DNA of 39,157 nt, taken from NCBI GenBank assembly GCA_043798985.1, contig JAZDOE010000016.1, positions 1 through 39,157 on the forward strand, in the 5' to 3' direction. A program made the translations under genes and the position numbers. Below are positions 15,766 to 38,040 of this stretch, one piece after another (position 1 is the first letter of the stretch; the number at the start of each line of letters is the position of its first letter). The notes under the pieces were generated by a model. It saw only the letters and a program-made list of their open reading frames with translations, made no database searches and was not told the origin of the DNA. Source of the stretch: Candidatus Falkowbacteria bacterium (GTDB taxonomy: Bacteria > Patescibacteriota > Patescibacteriia > UBA11705 > JACRDX01).

Positions 15766-16536
15766 ATGCTTAAAGAACCAACAATAAAAGCAGAACAAGA
15801 ACAACGCGAACGCGTGGAACGCGGGATCAGGATGGCCGCGGTTTTCGGTTGCGCGCCCGCGCAAATGAAATTGTGCGGACGAAAGGACAAGGAAACGCCG
15901 CAGGTTTTGCAGAATTTTTTAGCGAACAAGGGCGGCGTTGATTCAGCGCGGGCGCGCGAAGTTCTGGAAAATTTTGAAGCGGCAACTGAGTATTACAAAT
16001 TAATTGCCGCGGCAAACAACATTCCAGACCCCTTTGACGAACGCGTGGTTGAAGCATATTGGATTGGCAATGATTTATTGGAAAAAGTTAAACCCGATGA
16101 TATTAAAAAAATGATTTTGGAAAAATTTGTCGGCGCGAAAATGATGACGCAAGAAGACGCAGAAGCGCGAGTCGCGAAATTAGCAGCCGACATTGTTGCT
16201 CATCATAATTTTCACGTGCTGGCTTTAGGCGCGGCGAGCGCTGAAGCTCGGCAAGTAGCTGGATTGTACGAATTGTGCAGTGTAAATTTTGGCAAAGTTG
16301 TTGGCGTTGAAGATAATAAAGTGACAATAAAATACAAGCCACTTGTTTTAGAAGACAGCGGGTTTACGGTCAGCAACAATGAGGTTGCAAAGCAACTAAC
16401 TTGGGACAAAAATGTTGCGCCAGAAATAAAAAATGGAGACAGCGTTTGTTTCCATTGGAATCAGGTTTGCCAAAAATTGACAGAAGCGCAAGCGCGCAAC
16501 TTGGCAGAATATACACGCGTGGCGTTGTCATCCTGA
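15766..16536 (+). CDS. conserved hypothetical protein (resembles DUF6390, with a HypC-like C-terminal motif)
   Basis: FEAATEYYKLIA...DPFDERVVEAYWIG, AHHNFHVL, GDSVCFHW; family recalled from motifs, not searched. Confidence 0.65.
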   Translation: MLKEPTIKAEQEQRERVERGIRMAAVFGCAPAQMKLCGRKDKETPQVLQNFLANKGGVDSARAREVLENFEAATEYYKLIAAANNIPDPFDERVVEAYWIGNDLLEKVKPDDIKKMILEKFVGAKMMTQEDAEARVAKLAADIVAHHNFHVLALGAASAEARQVAGLYELCSVNFGKVVGVEDNKVTIKYKPLVLEDSGFTVSNNEVAKQLTWDKNVAPEIKNGDSVCFHWNQVCQKLTEAQARNLAEYTRVALSS

Positions 16537-16882
16537 GCCTGTCGAAGGATGACGAGATGCACACAACTTTGCCAGCTGTGGCAGATCGTCTAACTGCGCA
16601 AAAATTAGCGCTTCTTTTTTTTCTCTACGCCAACCCTTAAGCTGCTTCTCTCTGGCGATTGCCTTATCAACATCAACAAATTCCTCATAATATACGAGCA
16701 CAACCGGTCGCCGTGAATATGTATAACAAAACGTTTTTTGACCGTCGTTATGCTGATTGATCCTATGATTGATATTATTGGTCACGCCAGTATAATAGCT
16801 ACCGTCCGAACACCTTAAAATATACACGTAATAATATTTATACATAAGGTTTGGTCGCCCTTCGACAAGCTCAGGGTGACAA
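16525..16882. mobile_element. GIY-YIG gene flanked by inverted REP-like hairpins
   Basis: ttgtcatcctgagcctgtcgaagga (16525-16549) versus reverse complement of 16858-16882 ttgtcaccctgagcttgtcgaaggg: 22/25 identical. Confidence 0.7.
16528..16845 (-). CDS. GIY-YIG nuclease family protein (UPF0213-like)
   Basis: YYVYILRCSDGSYYTGVTN...R...HN...RRPVVLVYYE...AIAREKQLKGW. Confidence 0.92.
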   Translation of the reverse strand: MYKYYYVYILRCSDGSYYTGVTNNINHRINQHNDGQKTFCYTYSRRPVVLVYYEEFVDVDKAIAREKQLKGWRREKKEALIFAQLDDLPQLAKLCASRHPSTGSG

Positions 16883-26576: not shown

Positions 26577-26585
26577 AATAAAAAA

Positions 26586-26659
26586 TGGACTGTGGGGGAC
26601 TTGAACCCCCGGCCTCCTCCATGCCATGGAGGCGCTCTGGCCAACTGAGCTAACAGCCC
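26586..26659 (-). tRNA. tRNA-Ala(GGC)
   Basis: GGGCTGT/ACAGTCC acceptor with G3:U70, CCTCC-AT-GGC-AT-GGAGG. Confidence 0.95.
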
Positions 26660-26711
26660 AAACTCTATTGACTCATTCTAATACAGAGATTATAATTTGT
26701 ATAGTTTTTTT

Positions 26712-26783
26712 GGGTCGTTAGCTCAACGGTAGAGCAGTGGCCTCTTAAGCCATTGGTTGCAGGTTCGAGTCCTACACGACCCA
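26712..26783 (+). tRNA. tRNA-Lys(CUU)
   Basis: GGGTCGT/ACGACCC acceptor, GTGGC-CT-CTT-AA-GCCAT. Confidence 0.95.
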
Positions 26784-26785
26784 TT

Positions 26786-30125: not shown

Positions 30126-30158
30126 AAAAAACGCCTCGCACTAAGTTTTAGTGCGAGG
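30126..30158 (-). terminator. intrinsic terminator
   Basis: cctcgcactaa-gtt-ttagtgcgagg preceded by an A run on the + strand. Confidence 0.75.
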
Positions 30159-30171
30159 TAAGCGCGCGGTG

Positions 30172-30627
30172 TCAGATGCCTAGTGAAAGAACCGCAATCG
30201 CTAGTGTAATCGCTTCGTCGAGGTTGTCCACTACAAATCCAGCGACGCCCCGTACGATCATGTGCTGATGGACATTGTCCTTTTCTATGGCGACAATGAT
30301 TGGCTTCCGATACGCATCTGCCCAGCCGACTTCAATGCAGGTGCCGATGGAGACCTTTTTTGCGCCGAGAAAGTTGAACAATACCGCATCCGCGCGCATG
30401 ACGTCAAATCTGTCGCGGCAAACAATGCCTGGCTGGCGGCAGAGCGGATTGTCCGCGTGCTCACCGTGGATCATTGTCTGCGCCGCCAGAAAGTCTTTGC
30501 CGCGCATTGGAGACAACGCGTGGATGTGTTGCGGCAGCCGGCGCGCAACGCACTTTCTCCAGTCAGTGCACTCGCCGAAAGAACAACCGTCAATCGGTCC
30601 GGCAAGATAAAGCAGCGTGTCTTTCAT
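30172..30627 (-). CDS. nucleoside 2-deoxyribosyltransferase / dNMP N-glycosidase family protein
   Basis: LYLAGPI, DRFDVMRADAVL, SIGTCIEVGWA; GGAGGA SD before ATG 30627. Confidence 0.8.
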   Translation of the reverse strand: MKDTLLYLAGPIDGCSFGECTDWRKCVARRLPQHIHALSPMRGKDFLAAQTMIHGEHADNPLCRQPGIVCRDRFDVMRADAVLFNFLGAKKVSIGTCIEVGWADAYRKPIIVAIEKDNVHQHMIVRGVAGFVVDNLDEAITLAIAVLSLGI

Positions 30628-30706
30628 GGATTCCTCCATCCACAAGTTTGTTTTCGATTAGCTACAAGGAAGGTTATTTCAAGTAGACAAAAAAGTCAAT
30701 GTTAAC

Positions 30707-30738
30707 AAAAAAACGCCCCTGATAAGTTTTATCAGGGG
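30707..30738 (-). terminator. intrinsic terminator
   Basis: cccctgataa-gtt-ttatcagggg preceded by an A run on the + strand. Confidence 0.75.
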
Positions 30739-30748
30739 GTAGTCAATA

Positions 30749-31450
30749 CTATTCGTGTGCTGGATATTCCTGTATGAGCTCCAAGAGCTCTATGTGGCAC
30801 ATCAGTGTTGGAAAAGACAGAGACACAGTGTCTGGGTAGTCTTTCAGATTGTTGCAGAAATTTACCCAAACCAGTTTTGCTTCGGCAAGCGCTTCGTCGC
30901 GAGCAGTGGCTTTTAAGGGATATTCTACTTCCTTTTCCTTCGGCGGGATGCCAACGCGTTTTTCCACGAAGTGCAGGTACCATGTTTGTCTGCGCTCGTC
31001 TTTGGTCGCGACCACACCCTTCTGTGGCGCGGTCCAGTCTTCCACTGGCAACAGCTCGCCGCGCCGCACTTTGCAGTAGATGTGCTTTGCCGCGGCCACG
31101 CTGGCCGCGTAGATGGCATATGCTTGCGCAGTTTCACCGTTGTCGCTGGTGAAAAACGACGAAACGACGATGCTGGCGTCAGCGGTCTTGTACACACCTT
31201 CCTTGCGGTAGCAGTTGATGCCAACGACATCTTCGCGGTGAGTGACATGAGTGACCAATTCTACGGGAATGCACGGACATTCAGTGGTCGGATCCATCAA
31301 TCCTCCATGGAATGTCACGCTGACATACGATTGCGACCGCTTCTGATCCCACTGGGTTGTCGCGTCTGGATTTTTGATCCAAGCCCGCGCTGTTTCACAA
31401 GTGAACTCACCCAGCAGGTCTTTCATCAGGTCTTTCAGCCAAATGAACAT
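30749..31450 (-). CDS. hypothetical protein
   Basis: AAGGAGG SD before ATG 31450; own promoter and terminator. Confidence 0.7.
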   Translation of the reverse strand: MFIWLKDLMKDLLGEFTCETARAWIKNPDATTQWDQKRSQSYVSVTFHGGLMDPTTECPCIPVELVTHVTHREDVVGINCYRKEGVYKTADASIVVSSFFTSDNGETAQAYAIYAASVAAAKHIYCKVRRGELLPVEDWTAPQKGVVATKDERRQTWYLHFVEKRVGIPPKEKEVEYPLKATARDEALAEAKLVWVNFCNNLKDYPDTVSLSFPTLMCHIELLELIQEYPAHE

Positions 31451-31586
31451 GGGAACCTCCTTTTGGTCACGGGATGCCGTAGAGAGTTTTGCTCTCAATC
31501 GGGTCGTGATCCGTTAGCTGAAGGTTAGCAAATATACTAAAAAAAGTCAATCCCAACAATGAGTTTGACTCTTAATTTACGTTAAA

Positions 31587-31679
31587 TGCGCCCCGTAGGA
31601 ATCGAACCTACATCACTGGTTCCGCCCTGTCATTCGACAGGGCGCCCCGTCGGATGACGGGGCGAAGACGAGTCTATCC
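31587..31679 (-). pseudogene. 3'-half duplicate of tRNA-Arg(UCG) with a 40-bp double hairpin in the anticodon loop and a degenerate D-arm remnant
   Basis: 31585-31624 identical to 31948-31987; insert 31625-31664; then aagacgagtctatcc versus aagaccagtactctatcc in the intact gene. Confidence 0.88.
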
Positions 31680-31941
31680 TTAGGCATCCCAACTGGTTTA
31701 GGATGTCTCGAAGCTGTTGTTTTAGTAATCGTTTTCCTTCAGTCGTTTTTAGGAATTGTTCTCTTCGTTGCGCATCGCTTTTTAAGATATAAGTTTCGTA
31801 ATGAGTTAATGTCAGCGGGCGGTAATTTTTTGTGGAGACAACCTTGCCAATTTTATGTTGCACAAGTCGTTCATTAAGATCCGCAGTGCTTCCGGTATAA
31901 AGATTTTTATTGGATAAACAGAGAATATATACGAAATACAT
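31630..31941 (-). CDS. GIY-YIG nuclease family protein
   Basis: MYFVYIL...LYTGST.DL..RL.QH..G.V.ST...RP...HYE.Y...DA.RRE.FLK; start set at ATG 31941. Confidence 0.92.
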   Translation of the reverse strand: MYFVYILCLSNKNLYTGSTADLNERLVQHKIGKVVSTKNYRPLTLTHYETYILKSDAQRREQFLKTTEGKRLLKQQLRDILNQLGCLRIDSSSPRHPTGRPVE

Positions 31942-31949
31942 ATTTACAA

Positions 31950-32021
31950 TGCGCCCCGTAGGAATCGAACCTACATCACTGGTTCCGAAGACCAGTACTC
32001 TATCCGTTGAGCTAGGGGCGC
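31950..32021 (-). tRNA. tRNA-Arg(UCG)
   Basis: GCGCCCC/GGGGCGC acceptor, CTGGT-CT-TCG-GA-ACCAG, GTAGG-TTCGATT-CCTAC. Confidence 0.95.
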
Positions 32022-32035
32022 ACGATTGATGAAAT

Positions 32036-32070
32036 AACAAATGGCAAATACCAAATGTCAAATATCAATT
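32036..32070. repeat. heptamer tandem repeat (nncaaat x5)
   Basis: aacaaat ggcaaat accaaat gtcaaat atcaatt. Confidence 0.7.
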
Positions 32071-32085
32071 CAATGATATTTCCGC

Positions 32086-32784
32086 CTACAGCCAGCCTTT
32101 TGCGTGCAAGCCAGCTCGCGCCGCGTGTTCCTCTGCTTCTTGCTTGCTCAATCCTTTCCCTGTCGCGATTAACTCCTTTTTTAAATATACGCCGACAACA
32201 AATGTTTTCGCGTGATCAGGCCCAAACTCTTCTTCCACTTTATACGATGGCGTGGTTCCAATCTCTTCCTGCGCTTTTTCCTGAAAATAACTTTTTGGAT
32301 CAACGTATAATTTTTGTTCCAAAATAATCGGCAATTCAGGTAAAAGATATTGCGAAATAAATTGTTTTGCCGGTTCCCAGCCACTATCCATATAAATCGC
32401 GCCTGTCACAGATTCAAACGTGTTTGCCAAAATATATTGTCTGGCTTTGCCTTTATCTTTTGATTCGCCACGGCTCAAAAACAAAAAATCTTCAAGCCCG
32501 ATTTCTTTTGCAATGTGCGCCAGCATTTTACTGTTTACAAGGCTTGCGCGCCAGTTTGTTAATTCGCCTTCTTGGTTTGGGTAATTATTGTACAAATGCT
32601 CGGTGACAACCAACTCCAAAACAGCGTCGCCTAGAAATTCCAGACGCTCATTGTGCTCAACTCCGCAATCAGGATGCTCATTCAAATATGAGCGGTGGGT
32701 AAGCGCCATGCGCAAAATATCTTGATTTTTAAATTTCATTCCAAGCAATTTTTCCAATTTGCGTAAATCTTTTTCCATAACCAT
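32086..32784 (-). CDS. rnc: ribonuclease III
   Basis: HNERLEFLGDAVL signature; C-terminal dsRBD (DPKSYFQE...SKQEAE). Confidence 0.98.
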   Translation of the reverse strand: MVMEKDLRKLEKLLGMKFKNQDILRMALTHRSYLNEHPDCGVEHNERLEFLGDAVLELVVTEHLYNNYPNQEGELTNWRASLVNSKMLAHIAKEIGLEDFLFLSRGESKDKGKARQYILANTFESVTGAIYMDSGWEPAKQFISQYLLPELPIILEQKLYVDPKSYFQEKAQEEIGTTPSYKVEEEFGPDHAKTFVVGVYLKKELIATGKGLSKQEAEEHAARAGLHAKGWL

Positions 32785-36223: not shown

Positions 36224-36304
36224 GGAGAGGTGCCAGAGTGGTTGAATGGGCCGCTCTCGCCCCGTCATTCGACGGGGCGCCCTGTCGAATGACAGGGCGA
36301 AAAG
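36224..36304 (+). pseudogene. 5'-half duplicate of tRNA-Ser(CGA) with a 40-bp double hairpin in the anticodon
   Basis: 36222-36259 matches 36588-36625 at 37/38; insert 36260-36299; then aaaag versus aaatg in the intact gene. Confidence 0.88.
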
Positions 36305-36308
36305 TTGT

Positions 36309-36578
36309 ATGTTTTACCTTTATATACTTTTGTTAGCTAATAAACAGTTGTATACTGGTTTTTCTTCTGACTTAAAGGTGCGGTTTAGACAGCACGAAAA
36401 TGGTAGCGTTGAGTCAACGAGACATAAACGGCCGGTTAAGTTGATTCATTATGAAGCATATTTGAAGGAATCTGACGCTCGGCGCCGGGAGAAATTTTTA
36501 AAGACAACAGAGGGGAAGCGATTATTAAAAATGCAGATTCGGGATTTGCTTTTAGGACATGGATTCATCATGAAATAA
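36309..36578 (+). CDS. GIY-YIG nuclease family protein
   Basis: MFYLYIL...LYTGFSSDL..R..QH..G.V.ST...RP...HYEAY...DARRREKFLK; start set at ATG 36309. Confidence 0.92.
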   Translation: MFYLYILLLANKQLYTGFSSDLKVRFRQHENGSVESTRHKRPVKLIHYEAYLKESDARRREKFLKTTEGKRLLKMQIRDLLLGHGFIMK

Positions 36579-38040
36579 ATAATGTACATGGAGAGGTGCC
36601 AGAGTGGCTGAATGGGCCGCTCTCGAAATGCGGTAGGTTGGAAACAGCCTCGAGGGTTCGACTCCCTCCCTCTCCGCCAGTTGGGAAATGAAGTCATTGG
36701 CTCGCCCGCTATGCGGGCTCGCCAGCCGTTTTTCGGGGAAATTTCAAGCCGTTTTGAATTCAACATAAAGTTCGAGCCGACATTTTTGAGAAATGCACGG
36801 ATTTGCGTTTTGTCGCCCTGCGACAAAAGAATTTTGGCTTGGCTACTCAATAAAATCACTTCTCGCATCAGTTCGAGCCAATTATTTCCCTTTTGTTCAA
36901 AATCTCTGATTTCTTGGTCTATATCGGCTTTCTCGCCCAATAGTTTTGCTTTCTTGGTCTGATACTCGTCCGGCGATATTCCTTTGCCCTCGATGTAAAT
37001 ATCAAGAAGCCGATCTATTTTCTGCTCAACCTCCACTTTTCGTTCTTTCAGATTTTGAACAAAAGAAACACCCTCGTTTTGGATACTCGTTTTCTCTCGG
37101 TCTAACTCGGCAAGCATATTGTCTCTCCAGTCGTCGGGAATAGAAACTTTTTGAATGACGGCTTTCATCTGTTCAACAAGTGCTTCCTCGCGCAGATATT
37201 TTTCGTTACAGGTTTGCTTTTTCTTGGTGCAACGATAATACACATGACCTTTTTGGGTTTCGGCGGTAATGAGGCAACCGCACTTTCCGCATTTCATAAA
37301 ACCAGAAAAAGCAAACTCGTGCTTTCGCTTTCTCTTTTTCTTGCCTCGATTGCTCATTACTTGTTGAACGGAATCAAAAAGTTTCTTGGAAATAATTGGC
37401 TCGTGGCTTCCTTCGTATAGCTCGCCGTTGAAACGGAAAGTTCCATAATAAAAAGGATTTTTCAACATTCGCTGGACACAGGAAGTTGAGAGAACATTGC
37501 CTTTGTAGCTGTCGAGTCCGGTATCCGCCAAAAACTGCTTGATATTTTTGAGGGTGTTGTCGCCGGTGCCATAAAGTTCAAAACATTTTCGCACTAACAC
37601 AGATTTATCATTATCGAGGTCTATGCTCTTTGTTTTTGAGTTGTTGAGATAACCGAGTGGCGCAAACCCCGGCCATATTCCCTTTCGCAGTTTTTGGCGG
37701 TGGCCCCGCTTGATGTTCTCGCTCAAATTGTCCACATAGTATTTACTCTGTCCAAAGGCAATGTTCAGCATAAATTTCCCCTGTGGCGTTGAATCAAACC
37801 AAAATGTGGGAAATTTAAGGTCTTGGATTTTTCCCGTGTCCAGCAGATAGATAATCTTTCCGCCGTCTATGGAATTGCGAGCTAATCGATCGGGGTGCCA
37901 AGCCAAAATTCCACCGGCTTCTCCGGCGCAAATCCGATCCAGCATTTCTGCGAAAACTTTTCGCCCAGGTTCTTTGGCAGTTTGCGCCTCGCTGAGCGAG
38001 GCGACGATTTCAAGTTTTTCTTTGGCGGCAAATTCTTTTT
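36449..38040 (-). pseudogene. large serine recombinase, apparently lacking its N-terminal catalytic segment; frame reads antisense through tRNA-Ser
   Basis: AKEPGRKVF, WHPDRLARN, APLGY, NPFYYG, HEPIIS, CGKCG...YYRC; upstream of 37945 the frame hits TAA near 38055 without a Y.R.S motif. Confidence 0.8.
36590..36679 (+). tRNA. tRNA-Ser(CGA)
   Basis: GGAGAGG/CCTCTCC acceptor, G discriminator, CCA, long variable arm, CT-CGA-AA loop (U31:U39 mismatch). Confidence 0.93.

Follow-up and report, generated by a model that had tools for sequence, protein, structure and literature searches.

In the genome of a Candidatus Falkowbacteria bacterium, an intact tRNA-Arg(TCG) gene is followed on the same strand by a small GIY-YIG nuclease gene, a two-hairpin element (HP) and a partial copy of the same tRNA. 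Judging from the comparisons presented below, we think that this arrangement is probably a selfish cassette, made up of the nuclease gene and HP and lodged in a tRNA gene, which spreads by nuclease-triggered, homology-assisted copying. Positions without a contig name refer to the window, by which we mean the whole stretch of DNA that was analysed (39,157 nt, contig JAZDOE010000016.1).

The tRNA-Arg unit and its nuclease

All parts of the unit lie on the minus strand (Table 1). The start codon of the nuclease gene, whose product is P0001, is at 31941-31939, close after the intact tRNA as the preliminary description had it, but the spacing is 8 nt past the discriminator A (31950), or 7 nt past the tRNA end called by ARAGORN, and not the 9 nt given there. 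The same description had the reading frame crossing a decayed tRNA remnant and ending within the second hairpin, and the coordinates bear this out: the last ~20 codons read the remnant and then HP, and the TGA (31632-31630) lies inside HP, where it takes up the final loop base of the second hairpin and the opening two bases of the 3' stem. The 3'-half copy beyond HP, which had been called perfect, is indeed so; it forms a 40-nt exact direct repeat with the intact tRNA (31585-31624 and 31948-31987, spacing 363), and a 38-nt pattern taken from this repeat has two matches in the window and none in each of 100 shuffles. No third copy, such as might mark the boundary of a larger island, was found in the window at up to three mismatches.

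Table 1. Features of the tRNA-Arg unit and of the sister tRNA-Ser unit in the window.
Feature	Position	Strand	Basis or remark
Intact tRNA-Arg(TCG), working copy	31949..32022	(-)	ARAGORN 32022->31949; Rfam tRNA 32021->31950, 68.7 bits, E 1.8e-14
GIY-YIG nuclease ORF P0001, 103 aa	31630..31941	(-)	Pfam PF01541
Decayed tRNA 5'-half remnant, D loop to anticodon, CTTCG at its end	31663..31679	(-)	local alignment
HP, 42-nt two-hairpin element (38-nt core 31625-31662)	31623..31664	(-)	repeat, folding and comparison
Perfect tRNA 3'-half copy, anticodon CG to 3' end plus 2 nt	31585..31624	(-)	40/40 identity
Sister unit, type U (mirror order), tRNA-Ser(CGA)	36224..36679	(+)	
Sister unit: tRNA-Ser(CGA) 5'-half copy, ending CTCG	36224-36259	(+)	35/36 identity
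Sister unit: HP core	36260-36297	(+)	
Sister unit: GIY-YIG paralog	36309-36578	(+)	56-58% identical to P0001
Sister unit: intact tRNA-Ser(CGA)	36590-36679	(+)	

The 5' remnant (GGATAG, a gap of three positions and ACTCGTCTTC, at 31679->31664) aligns to tRNA positions 17-36 with a score of 22, which was reached by 11 of 2000 shuffles (12.0 +/- 2.6), and we regard it as modest but real. Its CTTCG terminus falls exactly at the hairpin border, and the same junction of CTTCG with HP is found in a second genome of the genus (G410, see below). The locus is a real, non-random structure, whose distal half is the 3' part of a second tRNA copy, with the 5' part decayed and HP splitting the anticodon at CG. 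Contigs of four DNA runs, which barely cover the locus, yielded short pieces only (HP, the tRNA and two GIY fragments, each with three differences), none of which joined the sequences on either side of the 363 bp; loss of these 363 bp through recombination between the repeats is possible. An assembly artefact was considered and dropped: L072, L097 and L144, which were assembled independently, share this layout, and one contig of a further run spans the boundary between HP and the GIY gene.

No site matching a sigma-70-like promoter or a terminator consensus was found between 31350 and 32250. Co-transcription of P0001 with tRNA-Arg is plausible, and would be likely because the start codon lies so close behind the tRNA on the same strand. 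The preliminary description had coupled co-transcription with an RNA-level reading, in which the first 5' half could pair with the distal 3' half and place the gene in the anticodon loop like an intron; processing would then unite these two halves. Such pairing is geometrically allowed, and the 8-nt spacing would supply the transcript, but an uninterrupted tRNA exists that is complete without the distal half. A tRNA intron (group I, group II or bulge-helix-bulge) would interrupt a functional tRNA and come with a ribozyme or splice motif, whereas tRNA-Arg is contiguous and a search of 31000-32600 gave no Rfam match at E<=1 to group I or group II introns or to a second tRNA. The break sites vary between units, other tRNAs being split in the D, the anticodon or the T loop, and the mirror order of some units is incompatible with such splicing. 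We give this reading next to no credence.

P0001 matches PF01541 over residues 1-70 (49.8 bits against a Pfam cut-off of 22.6, E 4.2e-13) and has no second Pfam domain. Residues Y5, Y15, G17, R25, H29, E49 and E61 are invariant in 24 relatives of its subfamily, in which the RREKFLKTTEGKRLLKQQ helix is also strongly conserved and conservation ends near residues 82-84. AF2 modelling gave a confident GIY-YIG fold (mean pLDDT 86.9, at least 90 over about residues 1-80, 55-74 in the tail), and P0001 has the profile match, the conserved residues and the three-stranded sheet with helices of the GIY-YIG superfamily. The nearest Foldseek neighbours are UPF0213 proteins (1zg2, 1ywl), Slx1 (7cq3, rmsd 2.1 over 71 columns) and I-TevI. 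A PDB sequence search returned weak matches to UPF0213 and no others, and NCBIfam returned nothing above its cut-offs, with TIGR01453 matching below threshold. The conserved Tyr..Tyr-x-Gly, Arg and Glu are what we take to be the catalytic-type residues, and as far as sequence and model can tell the nuclease looks active. Its domain spans residues 1-84, and no separate DNA-binding domain follows: the tail (residues ~85-103) is modelled with low confidence and is encoded by the tRNA remnant and HP.

The hairpin element in this and other genomes

HP has the sequence CG-CCCCGTCATCCGACGGGG-CG-CCCTGTCGAATGACAGGG-CG, with the stem CCCCGTC/GACGGGG and the loop ATCC in the first hairpin, and the stem CCCTGTC/GACAGGG and the loop GAAT in the second. 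It had been proposed that the insert can fold as two short hairpins or as one long one, and both forms were found. Folded as single-stranded DNA, the Arg copy gives two hairpins (-19.8 kcal/mol, z -6.0), and the Ser copy at 36257-36302, which is ~96-98% identical to it, gives one long hairpin (-19.9 kcal/mol, z -6.8).

The genome (752.6 kb in 23 contigs, of CPR type, with 45 tRNA genes) encodes 11 GIY-YIG paralogs at E below 0.01, all of them intact. For nine of the 11, a tRNA gene on the same strand is no more than 63 nt away, and the tRNA-Arg unit is one of these nine. The nine units contain incomplete copies of their own or a neighbouring tRNA, with GC-rich palindromes placed exactly in the D, the anticodon or the T loop. 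The genome has two double HPs, those of the Arg unit and of the sister unit (Table 1), and they adjoin two GIY genes of a single subfamily; the other nine paralogs have no double HP, and the other GIY subfamilies of the genome are paired with other hairpins.

Several further repeats were seen in the same genome. The third GIY-YIG paralog in the window (105 aa, 16531-16845, minus strand) has no adjoining tRNA and is flanked by an inverted repeat of a different type (CGTCATCC...GGATGAC), which again encodes the C-terminal tail. Directly upstream of intact tRNA genes, and without a GIY gene, are tandem arrays of tRNA 5' starts with periods of 54-59 nt (C20:10940-11155, C6:3135-3310, C8:555-670 and C14:48900-49000), in which Val-TAC, Thr-TGT and Phe starts carry a single D-loop hairpin, CCCTGTCATYCGACAGGG or CCCCGCC..GGCGGGG; the genome also has a hairpin-split copy of tRNA-Pro(CGG). 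At C8:1-150, a 30-nt tandem repeat, CGCCAAGGCTTCGGATGGCAAGCCACTCTC, is present in at least five copies, runs off the contig end and lies directly upstream of, and in frame with, a GIY paralog.

Outside this genome, 400 genomes of the same class were searched at up to three mismatches, and seven of them, belonging to seven families, contain HP, the stems of which show compensatory changes (CCCTGTC/GACAGGG to CCCGGTC/GACCGGG or CCACGTC/GACGTGG). Nine of the 10 copies in these seven genomes have CG at both borders, mostly in a T loop (GGTTCG-HP-CGAATCC), and the site in G305 is the anticodon loop of tRNA-Ser(CGA). No exact match to the HP core was present among the 2.9 million viral contigs of viral_contigs.

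A metagenome scan gave HP in at least 120 stretches; the matches listed include 80 loci with DNA and, in them, 86 HPs. Among these listed matches, 59 of the 86 HPs have CG at both borders and CG at the centre, 17 have TG borders and a CA centre, and 10 follow neither pattern; in both the CG and TG classes, the centre can pair with either border, extending either hairpin to 9 bp. T-loop-like flanks (GGTTCG on one side, CGAATCC on the other) were found for 50 of the 67 CG-centred HPs listed, and a tRNA gene lies within 150 nt of HP at 38 of the 80 listed loci. From these contexts it appears that HP enters the CG (or TG) of 7-nt loops of the YTCG type, and the anticodon-loop sites of this type are CTTCGGA in tRNA-Arg(TCG) and CTCGAAA in tRNA-Ser(CGA). 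Among the matches listed, HPs with TG borders and a CA centre mostly have AT-rich surroundings, and neither a tRNA nor a GIY gene lies within 700 nt of them (L069, L071, L077, L084, L099, L105, L107, L108, L110, L113, L124, L139, L141 and others); in L133 and L143 such HPs lie in antisense T loops of the TTCAAAT type beside tRNA-Met genes. L137 has five 70-nt repeats with one HP in each.

Related units and the site downstream of rnc

Nine loci were collected by GIY similarity alone, with a single protein as query. Eight of them show a fragment with a hairpin, then a GIY gene, then the same tRNA intact, and in all seven loci at 53% identity or above HP, or a variant form, is found shortly ahead of the start codon. 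Together with the units described above they fall into two layouts, type D (intact tRNA, GIY, HP, tRNA fragment) and type U (fragment, HP, GIY, intact tRNA), under one rule: HP faces the displaced fragment and GIY faces the intact tRNA. In type U, HP is ~8-40 nt upstream of the start codon, and in type D it carries the stop codon. Type D is found elsewhere at tRNA-Gly (L097) and tRNA-Ser (L144), where HP is read in the same frame up to the end of the ORF (...HPTGRPVE), and at tRNA-Leu (L072), where the ORF terminates inside HP too.

These counts bear on the idea that two unrelated residents share the neighbourhood, HP being an autonomous MITE- or REP-like palindrome, mobilised in some other way and preferring TCG in tRNA-like loops, and GIY a separate gene of tRNA surroundings. 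It is consistent with the 67 of 80 HP loci that have no GIY match within 400 nt and with the TG/CA/TG subclass lying mostly away from tRNA and GIY genes, both among the matches listed. What makes it quite improbable in our judgement is the HP-GIY junction, which is tight and regular across many tRNA types, together with the presence of HP at loci selected by GIY similarity alone and of other hairpins beside other GIY subfamilies. GIY proteins at 55% identity or above also occur in four of the seven HP-positive genomes against none of 13 HP-negative controls, in a small sample and with a threshold chosen post hoc. One HP-positive genome, G225, has no GIY match at E<=1e-12.

Among 25 further genomes of the order, 24 have rnc followed by tRNA-Arg(TCG); in the other one the locus ends 177 nt past rnc. 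Nineteen of the 25 loci downstream of rnc, that truncated one included, have no GIY match (P0001 as query, E<=1e-3), and six have one, in five cases within 94-150 nt of tRNA-Arg or closer. Such sporadic presence at a conserved site is a property by which homing endonucleases are recognised. In the same genus, G410 (rnc 94% identical, GIY 70% identical) is colinear with the studied locus from rnc through GIY and has the unit in mirror order: a 5' half (35/36), the junctions CTTCG-HP-CGGAAC, GIY and the intact tRNA. The unit of G411 is in order D and includes two hairpin-split copies, both of full length. In G335 (L021, C3:243946-244771), three head-to-tail units of 394 nt, each made up of a tRNA-Gln copy with HP in its T loop and a GIY gene, precede an intact tRNA-Gln.

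In a tree of 32 GIY sequences, in which 3 of 29 inner branches are well supported, the proteins group by the amino acid of the tRNA across host labels (a Gln clade with support 97/91, and Ser and Arg groups, in a tree that is weakly resolved), and members of the Arg group carry different phylum labels. On this tree five changes are required for the five rows of type D, with weak support; the well-supported branches force only one. Taken as sequence patterns, the patchy presence, the flip of order within one genus, the tandem amplification and the grouping by tRNA type read as marks of a selfish element.

The surroundings of the Arg unit differ from those in its relatives. Just outside the distal tRNA half, ~1.45 kb (30136-31584) has ~50% GC against ~42% elsewhere and contains, on the minus strand, an ORF of 249 aa without a Pfam match (30749-31498) and a nucleoside 2-deoxyribosyltransferase-like ORF (30172-30645); the segment is absent from G410, where a cofE-like gene directly follows tRNA-Arg. 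Most genomes of the order have tRNA-Lys(CTT) and/or tRNA-Ala(GGC) 0.1-0.9 kb after tRNA-Arg(TCG). Here, these two genes (26585-26784) are ~5 kb from tRNA-Arg (31949), with pyruvate:ferredoxin oxidoreductase-type genes and a cofE-like gene in between.

In the classic att layout of a tRNA gene, the identical block reaches from the anticodon loop to the 3' end, as the 40-bp repeat does. This repeat could therefore be the att duplication of a mostly deleted tyrosine-integrase element, and the genome-specific segment of raised GC just past the distal repeat would suit such an integrase-island scar. Of the two hallmarks of an integrase-type island, the repeat is present and the integrase gene was not found: Pfam gave no integrase domain in five of the six ORFs of at least 90 aa that cover the first 1.5 kb past the repeat and on out to 26786, and the sole ORF between the repeats is GIY. 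The extra segment lies outside the repeats and not between them, the mirror units duplicate 5' parts of the tRNA, and HP is placed exactly at the junction in many independent loci, all of which makes a scar highly improbable.

The cassette reading and known systems

Under the cassette reading, which we prefer, the mobile unit would be a single-domain GIY-YIG gene tightly joined to the 42-nt HP and would come with a duplication of its target, so that one tRNA copy stays intact and HP interrupts the other one at the CG of a TCG within a 7-nt loop (that of the anticodon in the present case, CTTCG/CGGA). The nuclease would recognise hairpin or loop-shaped DNA and cut at CG with a 2-nt stagger. The HP end of the donor cassette would then be joined at the target CG, a step that would need host functions because GIY-YIG enzymes hydrolyse and cannot ligate, and the other end would be resolved by homology in the cassette-borne tRNA part, leading to copying into cassette-free tRNA genes (homing). 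The GIY gene would be expressed by riding on the tRNA transcript, and of the disrupted copy the proximal half would decay, the distal half keeping its identity to the working gene. We infer all of these mechanistic and enzymatic steps.

Several observations speak against the cassette reading. The intact tRNA keeps both of its TCG loop motifs and is thus unprotected from a nuclease of this kind. Most metagenome HPs are solo, 13 of the 80 loci having a GIY match within 400 nt, among the matches listed. The pseudo-copy in each genome matches that genome's own tRNA, which local duplication or gene conversion would fit as well as homing does. The weak resolution of the GIY tree and the HP of G225 without GIY also count against it, as does the activity of the single-domain Ssn enzymes, which, in the published text on them, cut ssDNA only (PMC11893778).

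P0001 resembles these Ssn enzymes in several respects, our comparison relying on the published description. As reported there, SsnA is a single-domain GIY-YIG protein of 94 aa that binds an ssDNA hairpin and cuts a few nucleotides upstream of it (Chenal et al. 2025, PMC11893778), the cut being 3 nt 5' of CGTCAT as read from the oligo lengths in that paper. P0001 has the same make-up (a single-domain protein of ~90-100 aa, as for SsnA), and in both cases the gene lies beside a conserved hairpin repeat tagged with YGTCAT. By the same measure, we infer that on either strand an HP border is located 3 nt 5' of YGTCAT. The repeats themselves differ: in the NTS/SRM repeats, as the Ssn paper describes them, the tag is upstream of the hairpin, whereas in HP it is inside, YGTCAT alone being shared. 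The SRM search sequence has one match in the genome, away from the locus, against a mean of 0.9 in 20 Markov-simulated genomes.

The likeness to Ssn also lends itself to a host-serving role, in which the cell uses an Ssn-like ssDNA nuclease, for example in restricting or modulating transforming DNA or in processing stalled forks at highly transcribed tRNA genes, with HP as recognition site and the tRNA duplicates as by-products of breaks. The retention of eleven intact paralogs in a 753-kb genome would be well explained in this way, and the single domain beside a YGTCAT-tagged hairpin repeat, the structure-specific nuclease Slx1 among the structural neighbours and the frequency of solo HPs (among the matches listed) point in the same direction. 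Against it, the orthologous site is patchy, 19 of 25 relatives giving no GIY match, the order flips within one genus, units have been amplified in tandem (three in G335), the proteins group by tRNA type across hosts, and the published SRM motif is not enriched, with one match for 0.9 expected. We consider a role of this kind unlikely.

The second relative is T4 SegB, a free-standing GIY-YIG homing enzyme in a tRNA cluster. Going by the portion of the SegB literature drawn on here (PMC2330249), its target motif is the T-loop sequence GGTTCRANTCC, its cuts have 3' overhangs of 2 nt, and it drives the inheritance of its own gene along with that of neighbouring tRNA genes. The association of a GIY-YIG enzyme with tRNA genes and a T-loop motif is common to both, and a 2-nt cut of the SegB kind would account for the repeat of the border dinucleotide around HP. 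Unlike the HP units, SegB as described in that portion is phage-borne and has neither a hairpin element nor a hairpin-split target duplicate. The unit is both Ssn-like and SegB-like, and a full member of neither group.

GIY-YIG homing enzymes have two domains, one of them a separate DNA-binding domain. In fungal mitochondria, mobile endonuclease ORFs carry a duplicate of the end of their target gene; as under the cassette reading, a free-standing nuclease gene enters an essential gene and supplies a substitute for the part that it displaces, which persists as a dead fragment, but the targets are organelle protein genes and no conserved hairpin marks the junction. The Rickettsia palindromic elements and the CGTC-tagged REPs are short selfish palindromes that insert into genes, RNA genes included, and resemble HP in this; they differ in lacking a linked nuclease gene, a tRNA duplication and a strict loop-CG target. 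Enzymes of the IS200/IS605 type are HUH or Y1 transposases that work through covalent intermediates, in contrast to the hydrolytic GIY-YIG enzymes. The two-domain make-up of GIY-YIG homing enzymes agrees with what the abstract of PMC3664794 says of them. IS200/IS605 elements with REP/BIME sequences are alike in that small ssDNA hairpins are the cis sites of a nuclease, as set out in the text of PMC11893778, and in that the element itself may choose the target, the centre dinucleotide of HP covarying with the border dinucleotide.

That covariation invites a more far-reaching form of the cassette reading, which we put forward as rather unlikely: a new mobile system that pairs a hydrolytic, structure-specific nuclease with HP, one end being joined through 2-nt sticky ends and the other through homology with the tRNA, and in which the centre dinucleotide would dictate the loop dinucleotide that is invaded (CG where the loop has TTCG, TG/CA where it has TTCA). 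It would be a GIY-YIG counterpart of IS200/IS605 target choice, specialised on the loops that all tRNA genes conserve.

In the literature searched, we found no account of cassettes that combine a GIY-YIG gene with a hairpin and are nested in bacterial tRNA genes; the word tRNA does not occur in the text of the Ssn paper, the supplements of which might list tRNA contexts (PMC11893778). The tRNA-nested nuclease-hairpin cassettes are thus apparently a family without prior description. For annotation, such fragments should be taken neither for tRNA introns nor for att sites.

tRNA genes are the best-known landing sites of integrases. A parasite of ~0.3 kb appears to use them differently here, invading their conserved loops, carrying a spare part, by which the essential gene survives, and leaving hairpin-plugged dead copies behind. 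If the cassette reading is true, matched nuclease-hairpin pairs with defined cut sites would be candidate ssDNA tools. It would also explain the many odd partial tRNA copies and GC-rich palindromes near tRNA genes in ultra-small (CPR) bacteria, and would give the single-domain GIY-YIG, Ssn-like nucleases a biological role and a natural class of targets.
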